DNA of 64,000 bases from Marsupella aquatica. Its lineage: Eukaryota > Plantae > Marchantiophyta. Under the pieces are notes generated by a model that saw only the letters and a list, made by a program, of their open reading frames with translations, was not told the DNA's origin and did not search any database. Made by a program: the position numbers and the translations under genes. How positions within the stretch are numbered: the stretch's first letter is position 1; each line of letters begins with the position of its first letter. The stretch spans positions 12,354,359 to 12,418,358 of the forward strand of contig OZ316893.1 of the NCBI GenBank assembly GCA_973895155.1, read 5' to 3'. Positions 6,699 through 41,030 of this stretch are shown one piece after another.

Positions 6699-6720
6699 TG
6701 TAGATAGGAACGTAGCGGAA

Positions 6721-11082: not shown

Positions 11083-11105
11083 AATGGCTACAGTGAATGC
11101 GGGAT

Positions 11106-11377
11106 CAAGGACTTCTCACTTGATCTGTGGGGCACACGAACAATGTGGTACCAGCGGTAAAAATGACAAAAAAATGTGAATCAATCAGTAAAAGCAAAGT
11201 CTACTGACACAGTGTAGATGATCGAGGACTTCTCACTTGATCTGAACTTACACGGATGTCTACAGTGATAAAAAAACAAAATGTGAATCAATCAGTAAAA
11301 GCAAAGTCTACTGACACAGTGTAGATGATCGAGGACTTCTCACTCGATCTGAACCTACACGGATGTCTACAGTGATA
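11106..11377. repeat. ~110-bp tandem repeat (about 2.5 copies) in the 5' leader of Copia-1
   Basis: AGGACTTCTCACT(T/C)GATCTG occurs three times; AATGTGAATCAATCAGTAAAAGCAAAGTCTACTGACACAGTGTAGATGATCG occurs twice. Confidence 0.85.
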
Positions 11378-11515
11378 GCCAGGAATAAACTGCTGCTGAG
11401 GTAAACGTCAAGCAGGGACACTTTCTACCTGAATGACATGCTACCTCCAAGTGTCTAAAGAACTCTAAAGAATTCTAGATGCAGCTAATCTTACAGAGCC
11501 TGCGCTCTGATACCA

Positions 11516-11757
11516 TGTTAGAATCTATCATTGTTGTACTAAGGAAGACGCACCGGAGGCCAGGTTAAGTAGAGCCTGGAGCTACCGGAAAAAGGGGAGG
11601 ATCAACGGACCAGCAGACTAACCTAAGATCAACAGCTAATCTGTCTGCCGTGAGTTGCGCATAAGCGACAAGAAGAACAACGGCACAAAGAGACTTAGGA
11701 GCCGCAGCAGCCAGCGGCTAATACGTAATACAGCTTACGAGTAATACTGTTCTAACA
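11516..11757 (-). repeat. 5' LTR of Copia-1
   Basis: Near-identical to 5925-6166 and followed on the minus strand by the PBS. Confidence 0.95.
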
Positions 11758-12779: not shown

Positions 12780-15700
12780 TCTCTGCACACCGACTCTTGG
12801 TTTAGGAACCCTCTTTACAAGTTTCCAACTCAATTTTCCTTCTTGTTGGTGGAGTCTTCCATGAGATCTTCCATGTGGACAGGTGGACCGAACTCTTCCC
12901 AGTCTTCCAGAGTTCTTAGCGAGAGGTTCAAAACTTTAGATCCTTAATCAGGGAACTGTAGCATTGGCTCCATAACTTAAGATTCTACCCCCTACTCTAC
13001 TACTGATAACATACACCTAACTCTGCTCAGCTGTTTCCATTGTATCCTCAACAGGCCTAATTAACTGGATGCCAAGTTGTGCTGCAAAGGCTGCTTTGAA
13101 CCCTGCCTCATCTATGGCACGTTGCTCGACTACTTGAATGCGATGTTGTGCCCATCGCTGCCTCCTCCATGCATTGCGCTGACGAAGGCGTCTCTCTCGC
13201 CACGATGTCCTCTTCGTGACACTCCTCGTGGGTTCCCACCTCCCATTCCTGTTCAATTTTCCATCTCATCGTTGATTGCATCACGGTTGGGGGAAAAGAC
13301 GAAGAGGTATGCCTTGGATACTGCTGGCGCACTTCCCCACCTAAGCAAAGGGCTTTCATTCTTTAGAAACTCAGCCGAGATCATCAAATTGTACATTCTG
13401 GCAGCAGAGGATCTGGCTCGACTGAACAATTTCCACATGATTAGACCTTGGCACTTCATCTCTATATTCATAGTCACATCAATCTCGTTGCCCTCCCGGA
13501 CCTGTCTACTACTTCCACTAGGGTGCGTGTGTAACAGTACCACCTGAGGTATCGGGGATCTTTTAACATCACACTATATTGATGCCAAGATGAACATCAT
13601 CAAGCCACTCCCTTGCCTGCTGGAGGAAGCTTAAGGGTGGGTCAGCATCCTGCCTAGGCATCCGCACTCAAAACCCCGGATTATGGTGCCAAATTGAATA
13701 ATACCCTTGCATGTGTTCCGGATCAATGGTCATACCATATGTACCTCCATGTGGTTCCACAAACTAGTCAATGTAATCCTGAGGAGGCGATCGCAATGTC
13801 CAGAGCATCGCTGGGCCAAAATAGTTTCCTAGTCTGTAATTATGGACACTAGCTTCTAACCACCTAATCACTTGGTCAGTGGGTGTTACTTCGTCCCAAA
13901 ATGATGACTTTTCCCATACATAGTTTTCTACATCCTGCGGATTAAAGGTGAATTCATCTGTCCGGATGAGTTCTCCTTGGCAAGCTATGGCTGTTGGATC
14001 CTTCTTTAACTCATAAAAATATTCCATAGCCTCATAACTAAGTTGGGGAAGGATAGATCCACAAAACTCATCCACTCATTGGATACATCAACGAGGGAAG
14101 TGTAAAAGGGATTAAAAACAACATGCATCTCATTTCGCATGGTCGCGTTCCACTTATCTCTGCTCCTCTCATAAATATAATCATCCTTGGAAGAGTATAC
14201 TTCCCACAATTAACAGGGACCTCCCTCTTGGCCCAAGTCTCTAATACAAGAGGCACAAGCTCATGTATTTTCCGATGAAGTCCAAGGCTATTGAACTTCT
14301 GATTGTGTTTCCTCGAGGCATCCGGATATTGTAAGTCCGCATCCCTTAGAAGGACCAAATAATCTAGATTGGCTGGATGCTCCCGTTCTAGTTTGGATAG
14401 TAAAATCTGTGTGACTCTGCTATTAGCTCTTCCTCCCAACCTAAAATACAAATCCTTGGGTTTTAGGACTCCAATGCATCCGGACCATTCAAAAATGGTA
14501 GCATGTAGCATATGCAGAGAGGTATTTCAAACCACACTTGGTCAATATCCACTGGTCGTATGGCTCTCTTGTTAATTCCTGCACTTGCTAGTATGACGCG
14601 CATGGTCTCTATTCCCATAGCTTCATCCACCTCAATTTCTGCACGGACATCTACCTTGTGTGTTGAGAAGGACTTCCAGGAATTGATGCTCACTTTCCTC
14701 AACAGGTCCACCTTCCTCTTGTTGGTGGAGTCTTCCATGGCTTCTGCTAGTAACTTTGCTGCAGTAGCCGCTTCCTCCCTTAATTCTTGTACTTGGATAT
14801 CCCAATCCTCATACGTAGTCTTGGGTATCCGCACAAACTGATCAAAATGTTGGACCAACTCCTTCCCGACTACTTCTCTCAACCACCTTGCTCGTTCTTT
14901 GCCACTTCTTTGTGCGCTGGCTTCAAGTGCTACTATGTACCCTTTTTTCTCTTCCAATTGTTCCTGGAATGTCTTGCCAATTGCTTCTTTATGCTAGAGC
15001 TTTTGCTCGTACTTGACCTTCTCTTCAGTTGCCATAACCACTTTCTCTTGGAGTGCAGTTACATACTGCCCACTCTCTGTCAATTGTCGGGACAATTGTG
15101 CTACAAGAAAATCTCCTTCTTTCACCCGTTGCTCGAGCTCTATTTCCTTCTTCCGCATTTCTTTCACCCGTTGCTCTAGCTCTGTTTCCTTCTTCTGCAT
15201 TTCTTTTGTCATTTGCTATGTCATGGGACCATACAACGCATGTTGGGTTTGTAGCTCTCTTAATTCATCCCCTAGTTTTTGTCGAATGCTCTGCTCTTCT
15301 TGCACCAGTTGATCTAATCTTGACATGGAACCTTGTGTTTCTATCAACTGTGCTTGTAATTCTTCTCCTTCTTCCTTGGCTGTTGCAACATGCCAACACA
15401 ACTCTTCGATCTTGGCCACTAGTTGCTCCTGCAATTCTTCCTTCCCTTGCTGGCTCTTTGCTACTTTGGCTCGTAAGTTTTGAACCATCTTGCTTTGCAT
15501 CTGGAAATCTCCTTGGCTTTGCTGCAAGGCCGCTTTCAATTTAGCCCCATTGTCTTTCTCTTGAGCTAACCTTTCTACTTCCTTTTCTAAGATTGAGGAA
15601 GTTTGTCGGCAGGTCGTCCTCCTCTCGAGTAATTGTTCTTCAAGCCTCACCATCTTCTCCTGTGCTTGCTTCAACTTCTCTGTGTCTTTGGTTCTACCCT

Positions 15701-18094: not shown

Positions 18095-19750
18095 CTACTT
18101 GTGATGCAATTGCAAAACCTGCAATACGTCACGGTGTCTAGAGAAACTCTCCAAAGGAATCACTTTGGTAAATGCGTCAGCCGGGTTGAGTTTACCATCA
18201 ATCTTGACTACCTCAAACAAATTATCAAACACACCCTGCCTGATAAAATGGTACCTGACGTCAATGTGCTTCACTCTGCTGTCCATCACCTGGTTCACAG
18301 CAAGGTGGAGCGCACTTTGACTATAACAATGGAGCTTCACATTCCCCTGTGGCAATCTCATTTCAATTATAAGTCTATCCAACCAAATCGCTTCCTTTGC
18401 TGCTTCCGCAGCTGCAACATACTCCGCTTCTATAGTAGACTGAGCAATACACTTCTGCAAAGTAGATCTCCAACTTATGCATCCACCGCCAAGTGTGAAC
18501 ACGTATCCTGTTGTTGATCTCCTTCGGTCCAAATCTTGTCCATAGTCAGAATCTACATAGCCAATCAATGATCTAGCATTCTTTGCATTCGCATCAAATA
18601 AAAGACCATGATCCACGGTACCCTTCAAGTACCTGATAATCCACTTCACTGCTTCCCAATGTACCTTCCCTGGATTTGACATGTACCTACTCACCTTGCC
18701 CATAGCCATGGCAAGATCAGGTCTAGTGCAAGTCATCAAATACATGAGACTTCCCACTACCTTATCATAAGGAACCTTTGACATCAGCCCCTTCTCAGTC
18801 GCATCTGTGGGGCAGAAAGCTGATGATAATTTGAAGTGTGCAGCCAAAGGAGTACTTACTGGCTTGCTATCCCCCATGTTGAACCTAGCAATTACCTTTC
18901 TTGCATAACTGCTCTGTGTCAACCATAGCTTACTAGCCTCTAAGTCCCTAGTGATCTCCATACCCAAAATCCTCTTAGCTGGCCCTAGGTCTTTCATCTT
19001 AAACTCTACACTGAGCAGTGCCTTAAGCTTAACAATCTCAGACCTATCCTTGGCCGCAATAAGCATGTCATCCACATAAAGTACTAAAACAATGAACCCA
19101 AAGACAACATTCTTCACCGGTTTCAAATACACACAAGGGTCAAATACACTTCTGTGAAAACCCTGTGACCGAATCCAATCGTCAAACCGCTTGTTCCATT
19201 GTCTTGGTGACTGCTTCAACCCATACAAGGATTTCAGCAATCTGCAAACCAATTCCTCCTGTCCTCTCTTCACAAAACCTAACGGTTGTCTCATGAAAAT
19301 CACCTCTTCCAATGTGCCATAGAGGAAAGCTGTGACAACATCCATCTGATCTAGCAGCAGACCAAACATTACAACAAGTACACACAATAGTCGTATTGTA
19401 GAGTACTTAGCAACTGGTGAGAAGACCTCATTGTAATCCACACCTTTCTCTTGTGTGAATCCCTTTGCTACCAACCTAGCCTTGTAGACCTTTGATCCAC
19501 CTCCTGTGGAATTATCCTTCAACTTGTAAATCCACTTGCTGTCCACCACTTGCTGACCCTTAGGCAGCTTAACAAGCTCCCAAGTTTTGTTGTCCTTTAG
19601 TGACTGCATCTCCGTTTGCATTGCTGCAGCCCACTTCTGCTTCTCCTTTGAAGCACTGGCCTCATGAAATGAAGAAGGTTCCCCTTCTTCCGAAATTAAT
19701 GCATCATCCTCATCATCAGCTGCAAAATCATCCTCTTGCAGTTGAGATAA
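18095..19750 (-). pseudogene. Copia-2 pol, RT and RNase H portion (3' of the CACTA insertion)
   Basis: Motifs YKARLVAKGF, LYGLKQSPRQW, LYVDDML, YVDSDY and EAEY. The RNase H CD motif is altered to CYSQS. Confidence 0.93.
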
Positions 19751-22700
19751 CACTAGTAGAAACCGGGGTAATTTAGACCATACCTTATAGGACTAAGCCC
19801 ACTAAGTCCTTCTTCCATACTTTAAATGACTTGCACCCATTGCCAAGGTTTTGTTAAAGACTATAAAAGACTTTGAGTGTTTTCCGGTTTAGTTAAAGAC
19901 TATGAAAAGTAACCTTGCTACTTTGTGAAGGGTGAACACTCTAGGACATCATGGGTTTTGTTCTTGGAATCACTCTAAAGGTCCACACAAAGACTAGTTT
20001 AATACAAAGTCTTACAAGGGTTCATGATAAGAGTATACTTAAGAAGGACCGGGCGACATGCTACTTTTGGGTCTAAGTGCTTAAGGACATGCCTTCTATA
20101 TATCACCAACCTTAACTAACATTGCATCGTAAATATCCATGTAACGGGTACTTTTCATAACTTAGGGTACAATTGTACTAGAGGGCTTAGGGTGGTTTCT
20201 AACCGGAATCGGAACTAATGCATCACTATAACCCTAGCTAGGTACAACTCCCACACCATGATATATTCCGCATTGCCAACTAGTGTTGTTTTGACAGGGT
20301 CATGGGCACTAATTGACACAATGAACAGTCCACAACTTGATTGATTTGAGTGTAAATGATGGTGCCTTTTGATCCAAGATTAATTCCACAAGGGGGGGGG
20401 GGAGGGTTAGGGGGGCCCACAACTAATTAAGTGGCCATGACTTTGTCACCAAAGGGATTTATTTAAAGTTATCCTTAACCCTCTTTAGTTTTGTGTGTTG
20501 CCTAACACTCTGGCGCAAACGTACTTATTATGCTCAACGGGTCACCTCAACGGAAACGAGCTTACATGACTGCTTGCACTAAGTATTGGGTTAGGGTGAG
20601 TGTGCTTTGGTCATCAGGTGATTATTGGGTTTTTGTGAAGGGAACTATCGAGTACTTGCGCCCATGTGTTCGGGCCCCATTGTGCGACAGAACATTGTGC
20701 TTTGCTTCTATGAGTGGAGCATACGAGTAGGGTTTAGGGTTAACATTTTGCGAGGGAAGCTGGGAGGCGATTGTAGTCAATTGTTGCCATCCACTCCTGC
20801 GAGCGCTTTTGACAGTTCTACCTGCATGCCCCTTACAATTGTTTGGACAAAGGAGTTCAGCAAGTGGTTTGCGCTGGTTTGGGACCTTGACAGTCGTGAG
20901 GTGGTAAGGACATTGAGGCATCCCTGAGAAGCGCTTGATGGTAAGGACATTGAGGTGTTGGAGACATTGAGGCGTTGCGGACATTGCCTTAGAGGCTCTT
21001 GAGGCCAGTGACAGCTTTTGGCGCGAAGGCAAGCGGAGATTTGTCTCTTGCCTGAGAGCTGACAGCTTCGGATTGAGACAACGTGGGCGCACCAAGATTC
21101 AGAGAAGACTGACTGGCTGGGACCGACCGGTCTTGGGAAGTTGCAGCCGTGGAGGGACCGGGAGCGCTAAGGTACATTGCAGCTACGAGCAGCAATGCAC
21201 CTGCCATAGTGACATTGAACTGCCCTGAATCACCCTGGTTAGTCCAAACTTCCATTTGCAAGTTAGTTTTGGTAGTGGCTTTGGTTTTCTAGGCGGAATG
21301 AGCTCCGATGCCATGCATTAAGAATGTGGGAAATGCTATTTTGTAGCTTGCTACCTCATAGTGCTAATTTCAACTTCAGGTTTGCGTGGTTTTGGGCGAT
21401 AAGCTTGTGGCTCATTCGGACTGAGTGACCTTCCTGCGGGCCCTGCCCTAAGTGTTCACACTTCTCGCCGTCCCAAACTGCGAAAGGCTTCTCCCCGTTC
21501 TGTATCCCTGCTTCAGTAATTGTATTGAGGTCTTTCAATCAGTCTCATAGGGGAGGTCATTGTCTTCTCTGTAAGTTGTTGCTCCTATCGCACTACCAAG
21601 CTTGTTGAAGGGAGCTACTATCGCGAGCTGCTACCATTGCGAGCTACTACCATCGCAAGTTGTTGAGGAGAGGGCCAGTTGTTTGCGAAAGGATTTCCAG
21701 ATTGTGTCGGAGGTCCAGATTTCTTGCCTGTGGGTCCCCATGTTTGCAGTTTTTTCCTGGCTTCTTGCGCAGTGCTCCGACGTAGTACCCATGATGCTAG
21801 TCTGAACGGATTCATGAGCTGTGACTGATTTGCTGTTCAAATGATGTCTTCAACTAGAGCTACAATTAGTGTCTGCGGAGCTGCCAACCAGGTGCAGGTG
21901 TGATTGAGGTCAGTTCAACTGTTGGGTTGCCCGAATGTTCCGTTGCCATCATTTGTAACCACGAGCAATGGACTTTAGAGGCGGGATTTTCTAGGGATTT
22001 CTGCTCAACCCTTTGCTGGCTTTCTACTTTGAGGTCTATTTTGGGGTTCGGGCAAAGGGCGGAGGGCGAAGATCAAGCATTGCAGTTTTGCTAACGCTGC
22101 ATGGTGGAAATTGGACCAGCCAACTCCTTGTCTACGGTGTTGTGGAGCTGGGCGAGCTGCGACAAGGGACCAAGCCAGGCGACCTGTAAATCAAAGCCCA
22201 TTGACCGCTGCTGAAGGTTTGATGTTCTATATTTGAAGCTCTCGTTTGCTTTCTATTTGTCAGTCTTTCACAGCTGCGCATTAGTGTTGGCCCTATCCTC
22301 CGTCCCTCTACTGGCCTGCTACTGACATTTGGTTAATCATAGTTGTTCACTGCTGTGCATTAGTGTTGGCCCTATCCTTCGTCCCTCTGCTAGCCTGCTA
22401 CATTTGGTTAATCAAAATGCAATGTCTGTCTGAGTGAGCTGATCATCTCCAATGTAGTATGGGCTTGGGATTTACATATATGTTTCCTGCTTCCAGCAGA
22501 TAGGCAATTGCTTCCAAGCTCTTTGGTGCAGACGTCTCTATGGAATGCAATGCCCTATATGCCAGAGCTTTCATATATTGGCATGTTCACATTTGCTCTT
22601 GGAATATATGATCCCGAAAGCTTCATGAGCAGTTTATGTTCAGAATTCTGTTTATGTTATTGTTTCCGTCAATTGCAGCTTGGATTTTTGAATATATGTC

Positions 22701-23829
22701 CTGTCATTGATGATAGAGGGTGGTTGAGATTGGTTTTCGTTCTTCTTGGTAGTGGGTCAGTGTGTTGGCATTTTCCTCATGTCACTCATTCTCATCGGAC
22801 GAGCTGCGGATTGGTACTGAATAGTCATTTAGCCTATTGCTGCCTCCCACCGCCATTGCCGATTGCCGCTATCATCGTGTATTGCTTGCTTGCTTGCCAC
22901 TGCCTTTGTTGGTTGCCACCCTCTTCACACTCTCGCATCTATCTTCCGATATGAACGCGCAGCCAAGCCCACCAAAAGCTCTGTCCCTACAATCCCTCCC
23001 AAATCAACTTCCTTGTTTCCTACTGCTCATGATCATCGCATTGTTCTTCCCTATTTTGTTTACTTATTGGTCTCTCCACACTTGTTGCTTCACATGACTA
23101 TTTTGCTCCTCCCTGGATCCGAACATGCCTTGTGCCCAATGCTCCCACGGTGGAGTTGGGTGGTGAATAGACGACCTCAACACCATTGCAATCACATTTG
23201 GATGGGTTAGTTTTTTGCAGCTTAAACCTGTCGGGATTTTGTGCTTGTGGCGACGCTATCCTTTCTGCCACTTCATGAGTTTGTTTATGCTGCAGTGGGC
23301 GGTCTTGCGCAACTCAATGAGCCAATTTCATTTTCCCTGTGCACTTCTATTTCTCAGAGAATTCCCTGGTCATGCTCATTTGCCCCAGAGTTAGAAAACA
23401 AAGAAGAAGAAGAGCTGACTAATTGTAATTCCAATCCATATCCTGATCGGTCAAGGATTGTGAACTACATTGGCCTTGTCATTGGCCGAGGTCACCAAAT
23501 TTTGCTTGGTTTCATTCCTGTGGAGCACTGTTGTGATGGATGAATAGTTGTCGTAGCATTCTGCAAACTCTCACGGTTTGCTTATGGCCATTATTTGCAA
23601 TTTGCTGCTACTAATATGTCTCCGACTGAGCAGCATACACCGGAAGTAAGCAATAGTGGAGGTTTAACTGCACATCAACACATCCAGTGAACTACCTCTC
23701 TGCTGCTCACTGGAGGGTGAGACTTTCACTCTTTCTGGATATTGTAGTTTGTAAGCAAGTTGATTAGGAGTGTTTCATGCTATGTTTACATTGTGACCCC
23801 TAGCTGGAACCAATGGAATGACACAGTGA

Positions 23830-24402
23830 GTGGGAACTGATAATTTAAGGTTGGTTGCTGTTGGTGAGGCAAGTACAGCTCCTGCTCACCTTGCTGATCG
23901 AAGGTGCTTATCAGAGGACGTGAACACACGACACTCCACAAAAGCAACACTTATGGTGAGGACCCGCAATGCTGAACATGTGCGGCTTGCACGCAAGGCA
24001 GAGATGTTGCGCCTTGAGTATGTCAGACTTGGGATCCTTCCAGCCCAGTCTGCATGGTACTTTGAGTACCCAGTTGTTGCCAGGAATAACTACAGCCGCC
24101 CTGTACCTGCTTCTCCACCCTTCCCAACATCCTTGGTATTTTTGTCTCTCGTACATGACCCGCCACAAATTAGGGCCCAAGGGTGTGTGCACAGTTGCCA
24201 GTATGACTGTCCTGCCTGTAGGGCTTCTGGCCTAGAGTTGGATGACCGTTCTCTTGGATGTCGGTTTTTTCACAGAGCACAATGTATCATCTGGAACCAC
24301 TCGCCATCCTGCAGTGTGCCTGGCGATGTCACTTGTCCTGCCCTCCCAGACCCCACCACCGGTCACTTTGGTGTCTACACATGTTTGGATCACACGCTAT
24401 AG
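23830..24402 (+). CDS. Cys/His-rich hypothetical protein in the CACTA (start uncertain; first ATG at 23953)
   Basis: 190 open codons. The C-terminal half CVHSCQYDCPAC...GCRFFHRAQC...HSPSC...TCP...TCLDH is a possible zinc-binding fold. Co-oriented with the other cargo ORFs. Confidence 0.45.
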   Translation: MGTDNLRLVAVGEASTAPAHLADRRCLSEDVNTRHSTKATLMVRTRNAEHVRLARKAEMLRLEYVRLGILPAQSAWYFEYPVVARNNYSRPVPASPPFPTSLVFLSLVHDPPQIRAQGCVHSCQYDCPACRASGLELDDRSLGCRFFHRAQCIIWNHSPSCSVPGDVTCPALPDPTTGHFGVYTCLDHTL

Positions 24403-25071
24403 AAGACCACTTGTCACACCGCATGCACAGACCAGAGACCATTGACCTATAACTTAACACTTTGACTTGAACAGAGAGGATATTTACTTAAGATTTTGAA
24501 TTATGAGCAATTTTGGGTCCAGGGTTTACGGTCAACAGTACATAACTTATCCTATTATGGCTGCACTAAGTACAATATCCTAATTTAAGAGGCTAGCAAG
24601 CTCACTTAAAAGTCTCCTTTCAAAGACTGGAATTAATGGGCCATGTGATAACCTGGAAAAAGTGATTTATGCCTAACTTATTTGTCTCATTCACTATCAT
24701 AGCCTATTTAGGATGTATAAATTACAACCCTGATCACACTGCTTGATACCAATCCTGTTCAAAAAATGTATGTTTTACATGTCACGACTGTTATATGTGA
24801 TTCAAATGCATTAAATCTTGTTGCAGATCTCCTTTGGTGAATCATAGCCACAAAATTGAGGTGTAGGTGGAGCTATTGTACGAGGGGATCAGTTTTTAGT
24901 GTGGGCTCAATAAACCAAAAAGTATGTCTACTCTGCACATGTGTGTGAACATTTCATTGCAGTAGCAATTGCCACTCTAGTCTATATGCTACATTGTACT
25001 TTTTGTACACTGCACTAAATTGTATTGTCTGTGCACTCTACTAAATTGTACTATCTGTCTCAGGCATAGGC

Positions 25072-25752
25072 ATGGCACGCCCTAAAATCCGAGCCAAGAA
25101 GCGGGGGACAGAGGTGAGCAACACAGGTGTAGTTGGGCCAGATGGTAGTAACTTCTCCGCAAGTCAGATTTTCCAGAAGGCAGCTCATTGTTGTGCCATT
25201 TGTGACGATGGTGGTGGCTTAGCCATATGTGAGGGCCCTTGCATGAGGCATTTCCACCTCAACCCGGAGTCTGACCTTGCTGCAGAAAACAACTGTCCAG
25301 GGGTGGGCCTCCCGTCAGCACACCAGGGAGGCTGGATGTGCACTGCTTGTTTGGAGAAGCAGGCTAAGTGTGCACAGTGTGGGAAGTTGGGGTCTTATGA
25401 GGGCTCTGTTGATGCTCCACCACTTGTTAGGAAATGCCCTGACAGATATTGTGTGAGGTTCTTTTGTTTTTCATGTTTGCCCGATCTTGCCACAGCTTGC
25501 CCACTTCATAAGTGCAAGGCATGTGGTCAGCACGATGAAGATTTCTGGGTGGACATAGTCCACTGTGTTAGGTGTCCCACCATGTGGCACTTTCATTGTT
25601 TGAAGGAGCGTCAAGCAGAAGGCTATGCTTGTGACAGACACATCTATCATCACTCTGCACATGGTGTTGATCGATGGATCTTCTATTGTCATCGCCATGC
25701 CATAGATCCTACTTTGCACACTCCCATGAGAGATCACATTTCTTGGCTTTGA
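25072..25752 (+). CDS. EDM2-like PHD-finger cassette protein (226 aa), CACTA cargo
   Basis: CAICDDGG..CEGPCMRHFH..C..CTAC..CAQCGKLGS..CPDRYCVRFF..CPLHKCKAC..CVRCPTMWHFHCL..IFYCHRHAIDPTLHTPMRDHISW parallels the recalled EDM2 PHD region (CAICDNGG..CEGSCLRSFH..CPLHKC..CRRCPKSYHRKCL..IYCQEHEIDEELLTPVRDHVKF). Basic N-terminal NLS-like RPKIRAKKR. Intronless and open. Confidence 0.85.
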   Translation: MARPKIRAKKRGTEVSNTGVVGPDGSNFSASQIFQKAAHCCAICDDGGGLAICEGPCMRHFHLNPESDLAAENNCPGVGLPSAHQGGWMCTACLEKQAKCAQCGKLGSYEGSVDAPPLVRKCPDRYCVRFFCFSCLPDLATACPLHKCKACGQHDEDFWVDIVHCVRCPTMWHFHCLKERQAEGYACDRHIYHHSAHGVDRWIFYCHRHAIDPTLHTPMRDHISWL

Positions 25753-26350
25753 ACCTGAATAATGTACATGCATAGTGCACCTGATGTGGATACCTTGGAG
25801 ATTGCAGACATTCCAATTTTGAGAAGAAGGACCTCTGTAGGAGAGGATGCTTAGGCAACAAGTACCCTAAGTTCATTACTTGTTCCTGGGTACATGCCTT
25901 CAAAAACTCCCCTTAAGCCTTCTAGGAACTTTTTTAACTCTGCAATCATTTTGATCACGACTTACATGACACTGCTTAAATTAAATCAGGACTTCTCATT
26001 ATGAGCATATAAGTTACAAGGCTATTTAATTTGCGAGAATTCCCTTAAAGTGTACCAACATTTTCTATTCTCATTGAATGTCTGCCCATTTACAACATCT
26101 GTATGTGGCATCACAAAACAATTGCACTTGTCACCTTCAATATTGTCAAGGCACATATTCAAACTATGAGGTGCATGCTTGCAGGTGTCTAGTACGTTTG
26201 TCCCAATATTTCTCCCGTTTGGAATCGGAGCAGAGACTCACCAGACGACTGGACTGGACCAAGTTATAAACGCAGCATTTTAAGGGCCCTCCGATTATCA
26301 GGTGAACGCATTATCTTCCGGTCTACAGTGATTAGGTGGCCCGTGTGTAC

Positions 26351-27142
26351 ATGGCCTCTAGGAAACGTACAAAGGTTGACCACCCGCCTCTGTTGGCTGG
26401 AATCAAAGCCATTTTGATTCCTGGCCACTATGGGTTCACCCAAGTGAGTTGGCCAATCGTACAAAAACGATTCTCAGAGTTCCATGGGACTGAAGTCAAG
26501 GACATCACTCCACAGACTACACATGTTGTTGCGGGGACATGGCTGGATGTGATGAACAACTGGTCATGGTCCTTCATTGATTCTGCCATTACCAACCAAG
26601 GTCTAAAAGTAGTTGAAGTCTCTTGGCTGACCGATTCTGTTAAACATAGGTGTGTACAGAGTACTGAGCAATATGAGTTGTGGGAGAGTGAGGAGGCCAC
26701 TGCAGAGGCTTTGGCTGAAAAGGAAGCCTATGAAGCAGCGGCAGAGAAACCCAACTTTGCTTCTGTCCAATATGGACCTGTTGTCAACATAGGACACCAT
26801 CCTATGCGTGCAGATGCTATATTGAATGAGCATGGCAAGGAGAGAAATACCATTATGAAGGGGTTCAGTGTGGTATTTGCAGAAGAAGGAATTGGGGAGA
26901 CTAAGTGCAGATTGTACAAGTCTATAGTTGTTGAGCTAGGTGGGACAGTGGAGGAGAGTCTAACAGAAACCTCCACTCATGTTGTAGGTCTGTCATACAT
27001 GAAAATATGCAGAAATTTCTTTAAGACAACAGTGCGTGATTTTGTCATGAACAACAATCTTTGGGTGCTTTCCCCTGATTGGCTTCTGGAATCAACAGCT
27101 AGAGGGAAGCGACAGAATGCTTGGGACTTTGATATTTTTTAG
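26351..27142 (+). CDS. Tandem BRCT-domain protein (263 aa), DNA polymerase lambda-type BRCT-like, CACTA cargo
   Basis: Two repeats with BRCT hallmarks: LLAGIKAIL..HGTEVKDITPQTTHVVA..KVVEVSWLTDSVKH..EQYEL and MKGFSVVF..LGGTVEESLTETSTHVVG..VLSPDWLLESTARGKRQNAWDF. N-terminal RKRTK NLS-like motif. First ATG is at 26351. Confidence 0.85.
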   Translation: MASRKRTKVDHPPLLAGIKAILIPGHYGFTQVSWPIVQKRFSEFHGTEVKDITPQTTHVVAGTWLDVMNNWSWSFIDSAITNQGLKVVEVSWLTDSVKHRCVQSTEQYELWESEEATAEALAEKEAYEAAAEKPNFASVQYGPVVNIGHHPMRADAILNEHGKERNTIMKGFSVVFAEEGIGETKCRLYKSIVVELGGTVEESLTETSTHVVGLSYMKICRNFFKTTVRDFVMNNNLWVLSPDWLLESTARGKRQNAWDFDIF

Positions 27143-27439
27143 GCCTGGCCCTCCAAGATTCAGCGGAGATGTATGCTTAGCAAAGGTGGGAGAGAGTGAG
27201 GAGTAGGAGTCCCTCATATTTTTGTATAAATCACAATTTTGTAATAAATGTGATCCTTGAACTAACTCATCTTGTCATGGTTGGTCGCAGTTGAAGTGAT
27301 TGTTGTTTCCTGCTGCGTGGGGTGTGACTGTGAATCTACTTGCTGGGCTCTGTTTGGCTGAAGACTTTGGTGGGTATGCTGCCTCTTCCAGACCGTCAAG
27401 CCCTATGTAGGGTACGTCCTCCTACGGGTTGCATCGTGC

Positions 27440-27913
27440 ATGGCTACTGCTTGGGCTTACTTGTGTGGATTGGTAACCAGACAGAGTGTAGCTCCATCCG
27501 AGATAATGCCTGCAGACCTTGGATGTGTTGTGAATGCTGTGGTGAATGAGGATGCACAGTCGGAAGAGGATATTTACTTTTCAGCAGATGAGTTAGACAA
27601 GCACGATGCTGTAGGTGGTTCCTTGTTGCCTGATTTGGCAGATGATATAGTTCTTGCACATGTCTGGCCGAGGGTTCTTGTGGTGTCTGGCGCACAAGAT
27701 ATCTGCAAATATAGACTAATTAGTACCCAGTGGAGGGACTTGGTAGCAACATGTGCACCATGGAGGGCACTGCTGCCACTGCTTGTAGGCACGGATCGAA
27801 GACCACCATGGCATGAGCAGGGTTTAGACCTTGATGACTTAATGTACATGCCTGAGTACCTCAGGGCTGAGTGGCATCGACAACAGGATTGGTATCCGTA
27901 TTTGATGTGGTAG
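27440..27913 (+). CDS. F-box-only mini-protein (157 aa), CACTA cargo
   Basis: SLLPDLADDIVLAHVWPRV...ICKYRLISTQWRDLV matches the F-box pattern LPxLPDDI...RxVSxxWRxL. No kelch or LRR substrate domain follows. Confidence 0.65.
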   Translation: MATAWAYLCGLVTRQSVAPSEIMPADLGCVVNAVVNEDAQSEEDIYFSADELDKHDAVGGSLLPDLADDIVLAHVWPRVLVVSGAQDICKYRLISTQWRDLVATCAPWRALLPLLVGTDRRPPWHEQGLDLDDLMYMPEYLRAEWHRQQDWYPYLMW

Positions 27914-28240
27914 TAAGATGAGGACATCTCACACCGGTCTCGCACCTGGCACCTGTGTCTATGACTATACATGATTGGACTCTGATATGGTCATGGATGT
28001 ACGTGCAGAGGCAGTACATGTGAGGACAGCGGAGGAGTTGACACCCTCAAACATTTAGGAATTTTGTCTCATTCACTTGAGAATAGGTACATGACTCAGG
28101 CACCTATATTTTTTGTTTTTTTTGTTTTTTTGGAACGTTACGTATTTTGGCAAGTACAGTCAGGGGTGAAATCCTTAACAGGAAGTGTATTTTTCACTTG
28201 CATAATAAAATGACAGGGTGCTGAGTGCGTGTGTATAGTG

Positions 28241-31200
28241 ATGGCTCCAAGGTTGCCTCTTCACAACCCATTTAGGATTAGGCATCATGATTCTAAATTG
28301 TGGATGCGTGAACAAGCCCGGGCCGCCCAAGGTAGGAGTAGGAGGATGAGATGCCCATGCACACAGTGCCAAGGATTCAAGTCGTTGAGTTTGAACACTG
28401 TGCACCTTCACCTGCTGCGGCATGAAAGGCACCCTCGGTGGAGGGTTTGGAATGTACCAGCAGAAGAAGACTCCTCTGATGAAGAGTGGAGAGCTGACTT
28501 TGTGGATTCTAATACAGCTAGGCGTAGAGACTATGTAGAGCAGGACATAGACTGTGCAGAGGATGGTCCTGGGGTCCAACATGAGAACGTGGATGACCAA
28601 GATGGAGATGGAGAGGCAGTCACTGAGGACGGTGGGATGGATGTCCCAAGAATGGTTCAAGAGATTTTTGAAGACCTTGATGCTTTTTACGACACAGTGG
28701 AATCAGAAGAGGACAATGAACCGCAGCCACACATTGGCGACGGCCAAGCTGAACCTGACTTTGACATTGGGGAAGGTGCAGCAGAGAGGGAGTGGGTGTT
28801 TGGGGGCCCAAAACACATCAAAGAAGCTTGCATTCCTATCTACGAGGGGTCGAACTGCTCCAAGCTGGGTTTTGTCGTGTTGTTGTTGAACATCTGTGGC
28901 AATCACAATGTTCCCAATATATTTGTGACAGAGTTGTTGACCTTCCTGCGCCGAAATGTGTTACCAGATGGTAATTCAATTCCAAAAAATATGTACGAGG
29001 CTAGGAAATTGATGTCTAACCTTGGGCTGAACTATGTGTCTATTGACGCATGCCCTGATGGGTGTGTTCTCTTTCGCAAAGAGCATGCAGATAAATTGAC
29101 ATGCCCTCATTGTGGTAAGCACAGGTACAAGAATGTAGGGAAATGTACACACCCTGCCAAGGTTCTTCGTCATTTTCCTCTCATTCCTAGACTACAACGT
29201 CTGTTTAGATGCCCTGCCATTTCCAAGCTGATGACATGGACTCCTGATAACAAGAGCAGTGATGGCCTGCAGCGTCACATTGGAGATTCCAACCATTGGA
29301 AATTTGTTGATGAGAGGTGGCCACAGTTTGCTGCAGAGAAGCGGAACTTTAGATTTGGTCTATCACTGGATGGAGTAAACCCATTTGGAGACAAAAACAA
29401 CCGTTATTCATGTTGGCCGGTTACGCTGCTAAATTACAACCTTCCCCCATGGATGACTACAAAGAGGTTTTTTGTCATGATGGTGCTGTTAATCCCTGGA
29501 CCAGCTTCTGTGACCGAGCAATTCATAGATATCATGTTGGCTCCAGCAGTGGAAGAGTGGAAGACTTTGTGGATAGAAGGGGTGTTAACCCATGATGTTC
29601 TGAAGGGGCTTCTTCGACCCAGCCCCTTTAGACTGCATGCAATTTGTTTGCTGGATATAGCAGATTACCCAGGCCATGGCATCATATCTGGACGAGTGAC
29701 AAAGGGCTATGTGGGGTGCACACCATGTGGGAAAAATGTGACAAGTGAGTGGTCGCATGCCCTGCACAGTATGAAATTTCAGGGGCATAGAAGGTATCTG
29801 CCTGTTGATCATCCTTACAGGCACACACGGTCTCAAATTGCACACTTCAACAACAAAACAGAGCTTCGTGGCCCACCACAGAGGGTCACCAGAGAGCAAG
29901 TCCTGAGGTGGGCAGCCAGGAAGGCTGATTGGGACAAGAGAAGTGCCACTGATCGAGAACCTGAGGATCCAGTGGTGAAACACGGTGTGAAAAGACAGAC
30001 CTTGATGGACTTGGAGTTGGAGTACTGGAGGGTAATGTACTTAGCCTCCAGCCCCTGTATGATTGCAATTTTAGATTGGAGCAATGGTGGATTGATGTTG
30101 GTTACAATCCTCCTATGTGGTTAATTAGTGTTTCTGTTGTTGAATTCTTTGCTTTGTGGAGTGCAGGAATTCGAGCCCAGCAAACACAATATGGACGTCA
30201 TGCACATTGAGAAAAATATTTGTGAGAGCTTGCTGAAGTTCTTGTCGGGTGAGAAAGATACAGGAGCAGTTCGAGCTGATATGCAACAGAAGGGGATTCG
30301 CCCTCACCTTTGGTTGAAGCCCCATGCAAGCAATCCCAATGTACTTCTCAAGTTCCAAGCTCCCTATGTGTGCACACAGGATGAATGGAAGACATTCTTG
30401 TATAGATTGAGCTGTCTGAAAGTGCCCTCTGGCTATGCTGGTGCCTTCAAGAAGCATATTACAAAGAATAAACTTGGCAGTATGAAAACACATGACTACC
30501 ATGTGTTGATGCAGCACATTCTGCCCCTATGCCTCAGAGGTCTCATGCAGAAACCAGTCCGTAATGTCATTCTTCGACTGTGCAATGTATTTCGCCGTAT
30601 ATGTGTGAAAGTGTGGGATCCCCAAGGATTGGAGCAGTTGAAGCAGGATGCTGCTTATGTCCTCTGTGACTTGGAGATATACTTCCCCCCTGCTTTCTTT
30701 GATGTTATGACTCATCTCCTAATCCATGTGGTAGAAGAGCTAGGGCAGTATGGGCCAGTCAGTACCAGATGGATGTACCCTATGGAGCGATACATGAAGT
30801 TGTTGAAAGGTCATGTGAGAACATACTACAGGCCAGAGGCTTCCATGGCATTGGGGTACATTAAGGATGAGACGTTGGGATTCCTAACAGAGTACATGGC
30901 TGGGTCTGGTGAAGCTATGACAAGAGTTTGGAAATCTGGTGAAGATGATGGAGTGAGTGGCGAGGTTGTTGAAGGTGTGGGACGTGCTGTTCAACTGCCT
31001 GTTGCGATTCGAGACAAGGCTCATTCATATGTGCTGGCAAACACAGAGCCTATGCAACCATGGTGGAGGTGAGTGATTGAATTGACTTGCCTTTGTTGTG
31101 ATGCTTCTTGTCTGTTCCAAGGGTGATCTTAGGTTGTCATGTGTTGTTTAGACTAACTATGCCTGTACCTCATATTGCAGAGAATATGATATGCAAAAAG

Positions 31201-31940
31201 CTGCACACTCTGGGCAGCAGGATCCCTTCCCACAGTTCGAGCAGTGGATTCGGGTGACAATTCGAGAGCATAGTAGACATCACCCAGATATGGAGAAGGA
31301 TTTGTATCTTCTATCTGTGCCACCACGATTGTCTATTCTGACCTACAAACGGATGAGAGCTTATGGAAATCATTATCGAGTGAGGGATGAGCAGGGTGAC
31401 CATTGTGTATCATATGATTGTGGTTTGATTTCTGTGTTTGAGCAGAGAACCTCTGAAGAACAGAGGGGGTGGATGAAGATGGGTTACGTGGGGGAGTTGA
31501 CCGACATTTGGGTGTTGAATTATGGTAACACAAGTGTCCCAGTGATATTGATGAAGGGATCATGGATGAAATCAGAGTGGCAGAGACCAAGGGTCACCAT
31601 GAAGCGTGATCATGATGGGTTCTTGTTGGCCAATTTTAGGTCCAGAGTACCAGAATGGTCTGAGCCTTTTGTTTTCCCTAGCCAAGTTGAACAGGCTTTC
31701 TTTGCAGATGTGGAGGAGTCACATGGCTGGAGGGTGGTATGCCATAGCCAAGCACGGAACAGGCGGATGGATGGAAGTAAAGTAGAGTTCAGTTTGGATG
31801 ACCATGCTGCATTCGAGCATCCTAGTCATGAGACTGTACTTCCAACTCGGGCAGGGACTGACTACATCCCCTTAACATTGAGAGAGACATATGATGAACC
31901 TGGGCAAATGGAATATGATGAGGTTGATGATTTGCAATAG
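28241..31940 (+). CDS. CACTA TnpD/Tnp2-type transposase; exons 28241-30031, 30167-31068, 31181-31940; ~1150 aa, apparently intact
   Basis: Motifs CPCTQC (transposase-associated), IDACPDGCVLF, RHFPLIPRLQRLF, LSLDGVNPF, NYNLPPW, DYPG, DVMHIEKN, KTHDYH, FPPAFFDVMTHL and RWMYPMERY, with a DUF4216-like C-terminus (EPFVFPSQVEQAFF). GT-AG introns keep the frame. Confidence 0.93.
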
Positions 31941-32117
31941 GCAACAGCTGGCGATTGGCAAGTATGAGGTTGAGGATGACTACCTGCACAGAGTCACAGA
32001 ACGGGAATTGTTGCCTGGAATGATGTTTAGGATAGTTGGATATGCATGAAATTGATTGATACTTTGAATTTAGTGTGCTGATTCTCCCTGTTTGGTTGTG
32101 GGTGCTGTGCAGAAGCT

Positions 32118-35100
32118 ATGGGGGAAGAGGGTGATGACATGGAGACAGACATGGGGCTTGGAGAGTGGGGTGAAGAGGAAAGATTGGATATGGATGGAGA
32201 CCCAGGTGTAGGGGGCTCACAGAAAAATGCACCTGTGCAAGATGCACAGGGCCCTCATCAAGTCCCAGGTAGGTGGGCAGCTAGAGAGAAATAACATAAT
32301 CCATACCCTAGAAGGAGCCAGAGTTATTGGCAAGGGACGCCTGATAATTATGATGATGACTATGATGGAGCAGAAGATGGATGGGATGAATATGAACACC
32401 CAGAGCGTGGTAGAGACGGGTACAGAGGGCAATGGAAAGGTGAGGAGGATGATTGGACAAGTAAGTGCCTTGTGCTAGTGATTTTGTGATGGTAGTAGAG
32501 ATTTAGCTCAATATGCACTTATCTGATGTGTAGCTAGGGCAAAGAGTTTATCTTACAGGTCCATGAGTGTGGCATGTACCTGTTGGTATGCAGACTCTGA
32601 TTGGGACAATCACGAAAACAACAAAGGCCATCCACGTTCAGATAGGAGGCAATCATTCACAGGCGGGAGAAACGCCCCTAATTCATCAAGACAAAGCAAT
32701 AGGACAGGTGGTCCAGAACCATCTATGCGCCAAGGGAGAGGTAACTTGGTCATTGCAGAATTGCTCTGAAGTCCACTGTATATTTGGCAGCGGGATTTAT
32801 GATTCATACTTACCTAATGTAAGTGACTGTAAATGGATCCTGTAAATGTGCAGGGACTCCAGGGAGGTTTGGACAATGCAATCCAGGCCGTGGGGGGAGA
32901 TCAGGCCGTGGAGGGACCCCAGGCCGTGGGGGGACACCAGGCCGTGGAGGGACACCTAGTAGCGCTTCAGGGAGTACCAGGGCAGGAGACAGTAACAAAT
33001 TTGGTAAAGTAGAAGTGAATTCCGAAGGTTGGATAACTCCCACATGTGATGGTAAGAACCGTTGGCATTCTGACCTAAGAGGAGAAGTATTGCGTTGGTT
33101 AGATTTGAGCATTACAGAGTTTAGGAGTTAGAATAAAGCTGATTGGGCTGCTATCTGCAAGGACATTCTTGAACGGTGGGAGTATGTTGGTAATGATGGT
33201 AAGGGCCCAGTTGAAGATTGCATATCAGATTATGCAATGAGGATTTTGAAACAAGAGAGGCATAGGTTGAAAAGGATGTGGATAGACAATGGTTCTAACA
33301 GGAGAATGCCACCACCCCCATCATTGGAACTGGATCAATGGACACGGTTAATCAAAGGGTTCATGTCGGAGGCTGGACAGAGCAAGAGTGAACTGATGTC
33401 AAATGCTCGAGGCAAAGTGAAACACCTTTCACAGGCTGGGAGAGGAAGTTATGCTCCAGTGAAAGAACAATTGGTAAGGCAGTGACATGCCTGATAGTAA
33501 GCCTCAAACTTATCATCTTGCTACCATTGACAATCAACACTTGGTTTCATTCATATGTATGTTGATGTGGACTGCAGAAGAAATTGACAGGTGAAGAACC
33601 ATCAGCACAAGAAGTGAGAGAGGAGTTCATGAAACAAAGGAGTGAGGTGACAAGTGTAACTTCCAAACAGGTGATTATGTTGTAATTCTGTATGTTCTGT
33701 GACTATTTGGCCTTGAGCATCAGAAAGAAATGTAGTAGGAAGTAAGCAACCAGTTCTTGGGGACAGTTATCTGAGATATGTAAGCTGTGTTATGACAGGG
33801 AACTGTTACAACTCTCACAGAGATGTGTGAACGGTTGAAGTCATTAGAGTGTGGACTCCCTCAAGTGGAAAGTAAATTGGCTGATCGTTTGGATATTGTG
33901 GAGGCATCTGTAGCGAACCTTCTTGCATCAGTGGAATCTAATTTCAAGCTTGTGATTGAAAAATTGGGTGGTTCCCAACCAAACAATGAGGGCAACATTG
34001 TACAAAGTGTGCCCTTGTTAACAAAAAAAGGAATTGGCAAATCTGACACAGGTATGGAAATGACACCGGCCCATTGTTCATTGTGTCCTATGTTCAAATG
34101 TTAGAAGTAAGTTTTCATGAATTGAGTGAATGGTTTGAATGCAGGAAGAGTGGAGGCAGAGAAGGACCCTGTAATCAGTAAGCAGAAGGGCAAGAAGGTT
34201 GCTGAGACAGGTAACCTGCTATGATCCAGTACATTACATTTGAAAAGTGCATGGAGTTTTGTGAAGCTTAAGCCGGTTGGAGGTAATCTTTTCTGTAAGA
34301 ACTGGTTGGATGAACTGGGATCTGAAGTGACATCATGATTGATGTATCAGGTGATTCAAAGAGCAATAATGAAGAAGATGTGCCCAGTGCCTCAGTGACC
34401 ATAGCCAAGGAGGTATCAGGTAAGCTGATGCTTTAAATTCCTCTATATGAATGTTGAGCAACAATTCAGTGGTTAATAGATTCAACGTGAATATTGTGGT
34501 GTGTTTATTGATCAACAGAAGCAGACATGGAGCATATGGCAATGGCAAAGAAGGGGAAGAAGGCTGTTCATAATGGTAAGGAGATAGTGACAACTTTGTG
34601 GTTGGTGACATGTACATTTAGCACATGTGATGAGTGATTCACTTATGTTGGACATGACACTGAATTGTAGTTGATGCAGAGTTGACAGACTCTCAACCAA
34701 GTGGGAGCAGGGTGAAGCGACGTCGAAACTTGGGAGCAACATTGGATGCAAGTAAGATTGTAGATGCTTCAATTGAAGCAAGTACAATGTTGGCAGATAC
34801 TGAGATGATGTCGCAGGGAAATCCTGCTACACAATCAGAAGTGTCAAATATGGATGCAGATTCTTTGAAGAAGAGTGTAGCCAATTCTCGATCACCAGCA
34901 CAAAACACTCGTGCCAAAGTCATGACTCGCAACCAAGGTATGAATAATGTCATGTATAAGCCACCCAGGAAAGCCAAGAAAAACAGCCAGGGTAAGGTGG
35001 AGGTGATAGCCATAGCAGAGCCAGTCCATAATCTTCTATCATGGGAGGATGACTCGCAGGTATGTGTGGGTACAGGCATTTTGCGACCGGATCATGCAAA

Positions 35101-35275
35101 ATTCCATGGCAAAGTGGTCCCGGATGACCATGTAGTAGTGTTGTTGACTACAGTGATTGTATCTGATTGTAATTTGCTATTTCCGAATAGAGACGATGAT
35201 CCACCTCAGGAAATAATTGCAGATGCAGTAGGATCTCTTGTGCTCTGGCCATCAGAGTGTGTTAGTCTGCAGTGA
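32118..35275 (+). pseudogene. CACTA TnpA/Ptta-like multi-exon gene with premature stops
   Basis: The ATG at 32118 follows a CAG acceptor. Many short GT-AG exons. Ptta-like WTRLIKGFMSEAGQSKSELMSNARGKVKHLSQAGRGSY and C-terminal FHGKVVPDDHVVV...DAVGSLVLWP. In-frame stops TAA (~32292) and TAG (33129-33131). Internal exon boundaries are not fully resolved. Confidence 0.75.
32884..32957 (+). repeat. 18-bp coding minisatellite x4 encoding (P/S)GRGG(R/T)
   Basis: CAGGCCGTGG(G/A)GGGA.. repeated four times in the TnpA-like exon. Confidence 0.85.
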
Positions 35276-36102
35276 TTGAATGCAAGTGTAGATAGAATCA
35301 TGTGAATTGTGTCACATTTTGACATTGCCTTGGAAAGATCCAAGAAATATCTGTACCAATTTTTCCATTTGGTAAAGAGGATGAAGGAGCCGTTGTGTGT
35401 GACATTGATATTTCTGAATTCTGTATGTATGAAACAATTGATTGATGTCAAACTATGGCTCTATGGTGATTGTCTATGATACTTGAATCTGTTTTGTATC
35501 ATTTCAGTATTAGTGTGTATGGTATAGAGGAATACTTTGTGACCTTCTTTGTAGTCTATGAAGTTTGAATCTGTGAATTCATATTAGTGTACATGGTATA
35601 GAAGATGGCTTTCTGAAACTATGTATTCTAATGTTAACATGATGAATGGTGAACTTATAGAGTGAGTTCATTCAAGTACACAATAAAACATGAATGCAAT
35701 ATGTTATTTGTGCACAAGAGTGGGTTCATTCCAAGTAGTATAGTGGGGTCTTCATCACTCATATCCAGTTGACATGAAAGACTTATACATACCCCACAAA
35801 GTATATTTAAAGACTACCCTCCATAACCTTTTTAGTCGTTCCCAACGACTCACCATCTCAGCCCATAAAAGACTGAAAACGACTCACCAAAGCTACCCAC
35901 ACAAAGACTAAAATAGACTGAAAATCCAGTCTATTAAACGACTTATAAACCAGTTCTATAAAGGACTCAGTTGATTATAGTAACAAAACATACGACTCGC
36001 AGTCCTATAAAGGACTGGAGTCCTTCCCAGTCGTTTCCAAGTCCTATACGGTACTGAATAGTCGTTTAATGGGGTCTAAATACCCCCCAGTTTCTACTAG
36101 TG

Positions 36103-39919: not shown

Positions 39920-41030
39920 AGCTCCCTCCTTGTTTGTGTAGTTCAATGTTCCAACCATTTTCAATGCGCTGCGTTCCCTTGGGTTTGGATGATCTTCCCT
40001 CAGCAGAAATGAGTCACACTCTAGCTTGTAGAGTTACTTTACACATAATACCCGCCCCTGGGGTCGGATGATCTTTGTGTGGCATAAATGCTCGGTTTGA
40101 GCTAATGGGTAAGTTTACGTGTTGCCCAACGGGGCGGGGTCGGGACCGGGTGGGGTTGGGACAGGGTTGGTTCTCGTGCCTTATGCTCGTGGGTCCTCTC
40201 CTTAGCGAATTCAAAACAGTGTAGGTCCGGAAGGTTTGGACGATCCTCTTCGCTTTGAAGTGTGAGGACGTCTCAGTCGAATGCCCAACAAATGACAGTG
40301 CTGGACCTTGAGGTGGCCACTTACAATTGATGCCTACTCATTGCGGTACTTACTGTAGTTGTTACTTAGATTTGCTTAAGGTCTGATCGGCGGCTGTACC
40401 GTAAACATGTATTATGGCCGTCCCGATTGCTTTTAAGGTAATAATTTGCCCTTTACTATAAGCGATTGAATTTTGGGGGTCACACACCTAGTCTGTAATT
40501 ATATACACTAGCTTCTAACCACCTAATCACTGGGGTTTAGGATGGGTGTTACTACCTCCCAAAACGCTGTTACTACCTCCAAAAATGTTGTCTTTTCCCA
40601 TACATAGTTTTTTACATCCTATGGATTAAAGGGAATTCACCTGTCCGGATGAGTTTTCCCTGGCAAGCTATGGCTGCTAGATCCTTCTTTAACTAATAAA
40701 AATATTTCATAGCCTCATAACTAAACTGGGGAGGGATAGGCAGATCCACAAAATTCATCCACTCGTTGGATACATCAATGAGGGAAGCATAATAGGGCTC
40801 CCTCCTTGTTTGTGTTTCTTAATGTTCCAACCATTTTCAATGTGGTGCATTCTCTTGGGTTCGGATGATCTTCCCTTGGCAAAAATGAATCACACTCCAG
40901 AGTTACTCCACACATAATAATTATTCACTTGGCCCTGGGGCCGGATGATCTTCTTGTGGCATAAATGTCCTGTTTGAGCGAAGGAGCAAGTTTACGTGTT
41001 GCCTAACAGGGCATGGTTGGGACCAGGTCT
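39920..41030. repeat. Mosaic repeat: diverged direct repeats (~39920-40170 and ~40797-41030) plus a copy (40487-40790) of 13829-14100
   Basis: GCTCCCTCCTTGTTTGTGT...AATGTTCCAACCATTTTCAATG occurs twice. CCTAGTCTGTAATTAT...GGATACATCAA..AGGGAAG is shared with the decayed ORF region. Confidence 0.8.

Follow-up and report, generated by a model that had tools for sequence, protein, structure and literature searches.

EDM2 of Arabidopsis acts in the AAE complex with ASI1/IBM2 and AIPP1/EDM3. Its fingers are reported to bind H3K9me2 and other marks, and its link to ASI1 via AIPP1 favours distal polyadenylation (PMC7472560, PMC7529245). Together with ASI1/AIPP1, EDM2 promotes full-length transcripts through heterochromatin (PMC7472560). 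The mark of the family is a series of repeated PHD fingers of an atypical kind, whose ligands follow the EDM2/NSD pattern (PMC7529245, PMC3776765). The plant anti-silencing factors in the literature considered here (VANC, TnpA, and transposases) are reported to bind DNA motifs and to remove DNA methylation. Large transposons of the CACTA type have also been described; the En/Spm families of Chondrus are 16–20 kb long with 4–5 ORFs (PMC6431247), and angiosperm CACTAs may contain extra domains such as Peptidase_C48 (PMC8978399).

We analyzed a window of 64,000 nucleotides from Marsupella aquatica, in which an EDM2-type triple-PHD ORF (25072–25752, plus strand) resides within a CACTA element. The CACTA superfamily, large multi-ORF En/Spm elements, and stand-alone PHD-only EDM2 relatives are already known. 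What is new is the transposon-borne, remodelled form of the EDM2-type PHD cassette, and the EDM2 origin of a gene in a plant CACTA is a distinct point. The titles and abstracts of the literature searched revealed no EDM2-type PHD gene in a CACTA, although subscription papers, Repbase, and supplements may hold such an annotation. The term PHD is absent from the main text of PMC6431247 and zinc finger from that of PMC8978399, and the main text of the 2026 gene-capture review (PMC13317346) contains neither PHD nor EDM2.

A host gene of the EDM2 family gave rise to this ORF, which is an intact accessory gene in a CACTA family of many copies. We propose, with a probability of about 0.4, that its product acts in the nucleus, without catalysis, as a decoy or adaptor for the EDM2-type machinery of the host and thereby keeps the element expressed. 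In this scheme, the PHD protein would probably be made from a spliced element transcript. It would probably act via protein contacts or an altered preference for histone marks, and less by reading H3K9me2 as EDM2 does, and it would support continued transcription and RNA processing of the element within silenced chromatin. To be specific for copies of its own element, it would require a partner that binds DNA, such as TnpA.

The CACTA element and its cargo

The sequence-only reading had assigned the PHD ORF to a transposon, and this was confirmed. The ORF is located in a complete CACTA (En/Spm) element of 16,352 bp (19751–36102, plus strand), of which the terminal inverted repeats (TIRs; left, 19751–19763, plus; right, 36090–36102, minus) begin with CACTA and are perfect over 13 bp. 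The TAA target duplication is present on both sides (19748–19750 and 36103–36105), and contigs that join the flanks without the element, with the empty-site joint from 19748 to 36105, were found in three of four runs (X1, X2, and X5). One 7-mer, a motif chosen post hoc, occurs four times in each 350-bp end but twice in the 15.6-kb middle. The TIRs with the 3-bp duplication, a TnpD transposase (Transposase_21, DUF4218, and DUF4216), and these subterminal repeats place the element in the CACTA superfamily. Its ends, 3-bp duplication, TnpD/TnpA layout, and size are similar to those described for the Chondrus and angiosperm CACTAs, whereas its cargo of an EDM2-type PHD protein and a tandem BRCT protein differs from that described for them.

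The cargo is arranged on the plus strand in the order of a Cys-rich ORF, the PHD ORF, a tandem-BRCT ORF, a weakly F-box-like ORF, TnpD, and a TnpA-like gene. TnpD (28241–31940, plus) encodes 1150 aa and matches PF02992 (E 1e-59), DUF4218, and DUF4216; it contains two GT-AG introns (30032–30166 and 31069–31180) and no internal stop once these are spliced out. The TnpA-like gene (32118–35277, plus) was modelled by hand with nine exons joined at GT-AG sites, which gave ~748 codons, and its match to PF03004 (Transposase_24, E 0.004) is below the cut-off. Two stops, at codon 59 and codon 256, interrupt this gene in the window copy, and other copies differ in reading at the first of them (32293). 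At least ten introns are predicted in the whole element. The stand-alone tandem-BRCT ORF (26351–27142, plus, 263 aa) matches PF00533 in two stretches (E 5e-14) and has one full-length relative with 60% identity. A search against PDB sequences gave no match for it. Judged from its sequence conservation, this ORF is a second conserved cargo gene of the element. The F-box-like ORF (27506–27913, plus, 135 aa) is located directly before TnpD; since its match to PF00646 (E 0.09) is below the cut-off, it is taken as a lead only. The Cys/His-rich ORF (23830–24402, plus) extends over 190 codons from stop to stop with the first Met at 23953, and its depth was high in X1 and X2. It resembles a PHD by eye, but this candidate was rejected because the EDM2 profiles, Pfam, and Atlas gave no match.

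The depth of the PHD bin was 0.5–2.9 times the TnpD median in four public runs (summed contig depth, a relative value that gives no copy number), whereas that of a 5' part (20064–22883) had a median of 0.1–4% of the TnpD bins in four runs. Since the PHD depth is close to that of TnpD and the depth of the 5' part is far lower, the PHD gene belongs to the common body of the family and is not a one-copy passenger. One run (X8) had no contig over the PHD ORF. The 5' part may be a variable region or a nested insertion that differs between copies; a run rich in purines is found near 20390, and a direct repeat of 61 bp has its copies at 22262 and 22341.

The CACTA element splits the pol region of a copia retrotransposon (17502–39901, minus), which was recognized from RVT_2, rve, and gag matches and an LTR pair. 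An alignment of the LTRs of the split copia over 439 columns contains 6 mismatches and one gap, and this near identity indicates that the CACTA insertion is recent.

The arrangement of the cargo is also consistent with a role in transposition, in which a chromatin reader and the BRCT protein would steer TnpA/TnpD or aid the repair of excision breaks, much as the PHD of RAG2 serves RAG1. The element that carries the PHD ORF also encodes an intact transposase and a tandem BRCT protein that is conserved, the window copy is inserted in the coding region of another transposon, and the remodelled fingers described below suggest new partners. However, transposition of maize Spm is reported to need TnpA and TnpD alone, and a single insertion site is uninformative on targeting. 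Such a cofactor role is the main alternative to the decoy or adaptor, although we consider it rather unlikely.

The PHD ORF and its EDM2-type cassette

The PHD ORF is intronless and encodes 226 aa, starting at the ATG at 25072 and finishing with a stop codon that ends at 25752. A basic N-terminal patch of residues 3–11 (25078–25104, plus) is predicted from the sequence to be a nuclear localisation signal, and a basic start is common to most of the full-length short relatives. Two candidate splice acceptors are found directly 5' of the ATG (25062–25069, plus), and acceptor-like peptides precede the equivalent Met in P0003 and P0011. The ORF may thus be spliced to an upstream exon.

BLASTP aligned residues 41–225 of the PHD ORF with residues 225–432 of Arabidopsis EDM2 (P0162), with 62 of 211 positions identical (29%) and a pairwise E value of 7e-25. 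A column table of the three fingers showed Cys or His at all 24 Zn-ligand positions, including one replacement of His by Cys. These results establish the EDM2-type PHD cassette that the sequence-only reading had recognized. Finger 1 (C41–C93, 25192–25350, plus) matches PF23011 (E 5e-4) and finger 3 (C148–H209, 25513–25698, plus) matches PF23004 (E 4e-5); these are the two NSD-type PHD models found by Pfam, and both matches are below the cut-offs. Finger 2 (C100–H146, 25369–25509, plus) carries the His-to-Cys replacement at residue 132, and its loop has 7 residues compared with mostly 25–27 in hosts, which makes it ~20 residues shorter than that of host EDM2. Finger 3 terminates in His as in EDM2/NSD. 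The PHD ORF therefore has the atypical multi-PHD cassette of Arabidopsis EDM2 with the same ligand order, the long His-to-Cys spacing in finger 1, and the terminal His. It differs from EDM2 in three respects: a Q-K/C-A/S-A/P-H motif stands in place of the acidic residues that precede C41 in host EDM2, finger 2 carries a deletion, and one ligand is replaced.

A profile made from the PHD ORF and five relatives gave 549 matches with E ≤ 0.001 among 1.84 billion representatives. Among the best 150 of these 549 matches, short relatives came first and were followed by EDM2-family proteins, and 20 matches looked up by name were liverwort, Sphagnum, and angiosperm records. Since the best profile matches are EDM2-family proteins and the gene is kept across a diverged family, the EDM2-type assignment withstood both comparisons at the sequence level. 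A search for longer relatives with a word index yielded 390 candidates, none of which scored; this blank reflects a limit of sensitivity because the profile search recovered them.

The AlphaFold model of the product has a mean pLDDT of 74 and a pTM of 0.71, with a disordered N-terminus. The structural comparison suggested in the sequence-only reading gave the tandem PHD of NSD2 (PHDvC5HCH) as the best match among 48,161 chains, with a middling Z of 5.4, an rmsd of 2.5, and 75 aligned residues. Streptophyte NSD-type PHD clusters likewise came first in the Atlas. Although the PHD ORF resembles the cassettes of NSD1/2/3 in the Pfam finger models and in the best structural match, it lacks the PWWP and SET domains. 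Foldseek gave its top E values for PZP domains, which were set aside since the TM-scores were near 0.2. Solved structures were also searched by sequence, and no entry for EDM2 was among them.

The cassette stands alone in the window. All 175 BLASTP match lines obtained with 179 EDM2-type queries mapped to the PHD ORF, and these queries matched no other EDM2 part in any frame of the window. This agrees with the earlier view of a stand-alone cassette without the methyltransferase-like domain. The C-terminal ELP domain (adenine-methyltransferase-like) is absent because the ORF stops one residue past the cassette. The earlier view was correct on this loss but omitted that the N-terminal RFD domain (PF12047), which Pfam detected in Arabidopsis EDM2 but not in the PHD ORF, and the acidic stretch are missing as well. 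The PHD ORF thus shows the PHD ligand pattern of EDM2 without its ELP and RFD/acidic features. It also lacks the PGR and Pro-rich parts, and it differs from EDM2 in being intronless and in residing inside a transposon. Pfam found no DNA-binding domain in it. A 30-residue match resembling the third finger at 60268–60411 (E 6e-4) was treated as chance since no matching flanks were present in three frames.

Donor and maintenance of the short family

Five short relatives of 217–245 aa are 81, 75, 53, 40, and 38% identical to the PHD ORF, and the profile search added 14 more, which makes 19 in total. Six of them are full length, two are nearly so, and eleven are apparently truncated or frame-shifted, as would fit dead transposon copies or contig ends. 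These relatives are known here as proteins without DNA context, and the transposon location was seen for the window copy. The nine near-complete short proteins, including the window copy, form one clade with support of 100/100 and a long stem of 1.5 changes per site, and the clade received support of 96 in a FastTree of 136 rows. The trees were made without partial sequences, with 136 of 179 rows in the FastTree and 45 hand-picked rows in the others. Pairwise identity within the clade is 31–81% with a median of 39. All nine members nevertheless have the changes Q35, R129, C132 (His to Cys), W172, and H194 as well as the 7-residue loop of finger 2, and the family has its own fixed start and end.

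Six EDM2-like paralogs of liverworts (Marchantia, Riccia, and Calypogeia; P0012, P0015, P0017, P0026, P0029, and P0056) are similar to the short family. W172 is present in all six but in 8 of 118 others, H/Y60 in all six, and H194 in five, and P0012 shares the F-S-x-x-E-V-N lead-in. Four of the six stop 3–4 residues past the last motif and thus end at the cassette as does the PHD ORF. In contrast to the short family, the paralogs are annotated genes of 280–768 aa with a long finger-2 loop and Asp before finger 1. The best tree grouped the short clade with the liverwort paralogs and one long-branch protein with weak support (71/63), while a grouping with core EDM2 was not rejected (p-AU 0.23). 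These sequence features suggest a probable origin from a paralog of the liverwort type, one in which the PHD cassette already formed the C-terminal end. The sequence-only reading noted that the ORF stops exactly at the end of the cassette, and its C-terminus indeed consists of the terminal EDM2 motif plus Leu. Since the liverwort paralogs end likewise, this stop need not be a tailored truncation and was probably inherited.

The stand-alone form is not new in itself because short PHD-only EDM2 relatives also occur as apparent host genes (P0056, a clade of 320–390 aa, and metagenome loci). Of the 11 loci obtained in a metagenome scan, none belongs to the short family or matches another ORF of the CACTA element, and a viral scan scored none of six candidates. 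As a separate observation, two further short (265–390 aa) PHD-only EDM2 clades are nested among angiosperm sequences (P0031, P0038, P0057, P0090, P0095, P0030, P0041, P0053, P0054, and P0134; loci L001 and L003–L008). These clades are independent reductions of EDM2.

Pooled contigs from runs of other organisms showed 28 differences in the PHD ORF, 16 of which are at third codon positions (p 0.008). Eleven are synonymous, giving pN/pS of 0.41–0.56 with p of 0.02–0.10 depending on the model, and one creates a stop; with a transition bias of 4 the selection test was not significant (p 0.10). When 10 rows present solely in depth-2 contigs of run X10 were removed, 9 of 18 differences were synonymous and pN/pS was 0.26–0.36. 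These codon data provide modest support for selection on the ORF. The conservation of the ligands across 31–81% identity is the stronger evidence for its maintenance. High-depth diverged contigs of run X6 lie over the PHD ORF and TnpD and leave the spacers almost bare, which may be an indirect sign that the PHD gene travels in diverged transposon copies.

A neutral piece of a captured gene, as in Pack-CACTA elements, or small-RNA camouflage without any protein function would account for part of these observations. Gene capture by CACTAs is reported to be common (PMC13317346, PMC8978399), many short relatives are broken, and the window copy is young, so that its open frame alone means little. 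However, Pack-CACTA elements are non-autonomous and carry near-identical host fragments, whereas the window element has an intact TnpD and a cargo that is 29–35% identical to the EDM2 proteins compared, a set without Marsupella's own EDM2 genes. Such identity is too low for small-RNA cross-talk. Moreover, ligands, start, and end are conserved across 31–81% identity and the differences are biased to third positions. A neutral origin is accordingly very improbable, and from the pattern of conservation the PHD ORF appears not to be a chance capture but, with high confidence, a maintained transposon gene.

Histone reading, proposed function, and chromatin context

In its strict version, the proposal of the sequence-only reading is that the product binds H3K9me2 like EDM2, so that it could secure full-length transcripts of the element by recruiting ASI1/AIPP1 or could mask the mark from the CMT/KYP readers. 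In favour of this proposal, the whole PHD region is retained with its ligands, as are D45, D/E54, and the hydrophobic residue that precedes C53, and H3K9 methylation is reported to persist on active Spm elements. PHD fingers that read unmodified H3K4 use acidic residues clustered directly in front of the first Cys (PMC3241642). The mean number of D/E per 10 residues before C41 is 0.75 in the short family (n = 16), compared with 2.83 in the liverwort paralogs (n = 6) and 4.03 in other EDM2-family proteins (n = 110). Since this acidic patch has been lost throughout the family, EDM2-like reading of H3K9me2 cannot be assumed, and the loss lowers the likelihood that the PHD product reads histones. 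The RFD and methyltransferase-like domains are also absent. In addition, the window is depleted of CpG but not of CHG, in the CACTA element and both copias alike, and the lack of CHG depletion means that the sequence bears no trace of a CMT/KYP loop for the protein to mask. Together with the liverwort-like residues, this depletion pattern suggests an early-diverging land plant, probably a liverwort. Reading of H3K9me2 with recruitment of ASI1/AIPP1 is therefore unsupported as stated, as is masking from CMT/KYP, and we regard this strict version as improbable.

Related tandem PHDs vary in their binding. That of NSD2 reads H3K4me0 plus H3K27me3 (PMC11724302), while that of NSD1 binds H3 very weakly and binds Nizp1 (PMC4838375). 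By analogy with NSD1, whose tandem PHD is described as a protein platform, the cassette might be a non-histone binding platform acting on another host pathway, e.g., ubiquitin machinery with the F-box-like cargo. The histone-facing patch is gone while new residues are fixed, and the weakly F-box-like ORF lies 1.8 kb downstream of the PHD ORF. However, the F-box match is below the cut-off, and the top sequence and structure matches are all chromatin PHDs. Such a platform is also improbable, though marginally less so than the strict version.

The anti-silencing role put forward in the sequence-only reading is thus retained in the looser sense of a decoy or adaptor, which would be the likeliest single function. 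We favor it because the donor family acts on transposon chromatin, because activated Spm elements keep H3K9 methylation, and because the window element must splice many introns. TnpA-activated Spm elements are reported to retain H3K9 methylation (bioRxiv 10.64898/2026.08.24.746577), so that a long spliced CACTA would face the problem of transcription through heterochromatin. Several points stand against a decoy or adaptor. First, the CACTA ORFs are strongly depleted of CpG (o/e 0.25–0.41), which indicates that the family has long been methylated despite its PHD gene. Second, CACTAs already have TnpA as an anti-silencing factor (bioRxiv 10.64898/2026.08.24.746577). Third, the related NSD tandem PHDs vary in what they bind. 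VANC of VANDAL and TnpA of Spm are, like the PHD protein, element-encoded and separate from the transposase, and the purpose proposed for the PHD protein is the same as theirs. They are, however, described as sequence-specific DNA binders that cause hypomethylation, whereas the PHD protein derives from a host histone reader and has no recognisable DNA-binding domain. The family has been recently mobile, and a counter-silencing role of its accessory PHD gene is plausible.

A wider interpretation is that early land plants harboured an old CACTA lineage in which an EDM2 paralog was domesticated as a miniature, rewired counter-silencer, possibly suited to the H3K27me3/H3K9me1 chromatin of liverwort transposons, and that this gene forms a host-manipulation cassette with the tandem-BRCT ORF and the two further ORFs. 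In Marchantia, H3K27me3 is reported to cover 40% of transposons, and MET1-type CG methylation is part of silencing (PMC10952607). We offer this interpretation tentatively, as it would be more doubtful than the decoy or adaptor function itself. If the decoy or adaptor function is true, a transposon protein derived from a host histone reader would represent a different anti-silencing route, via chromatin reading or RNA processing, and the transposon would turn the host's own heterochromatin reader against the host. The ORF lacks introns, occurs in many copies, and encodes a small protein with a predicted fold, so that the proposal is directly testable. The ORF would also provide a natural minimal, mutated EDM2 cassette with which mark-reading and partner-binding surfaces can be separated.

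The surroundings of the element contain further repeats. A second young copia (5925–11757, minus) has LTRs that are 99% identical over 242 bp, and its gag-pol is open save for one in-frame stop near 9130. Two repeats on both sides of the split copia (13884–14110 and 40568–40797) are 85–89% alike and 26.7 kb apart; they might represent LTRs of an older retroelement that was the insertion target of the split copia. Uncharacterised minus-strand ORFs are present at 13.2–16.5 kb near the first of these repeats. Four copies of a ~118-bp tandem unit in pyrimidine-rich DNA occupy 44334–44790, and more short tandem units are found at 41342, 50158–50434, and 53243.
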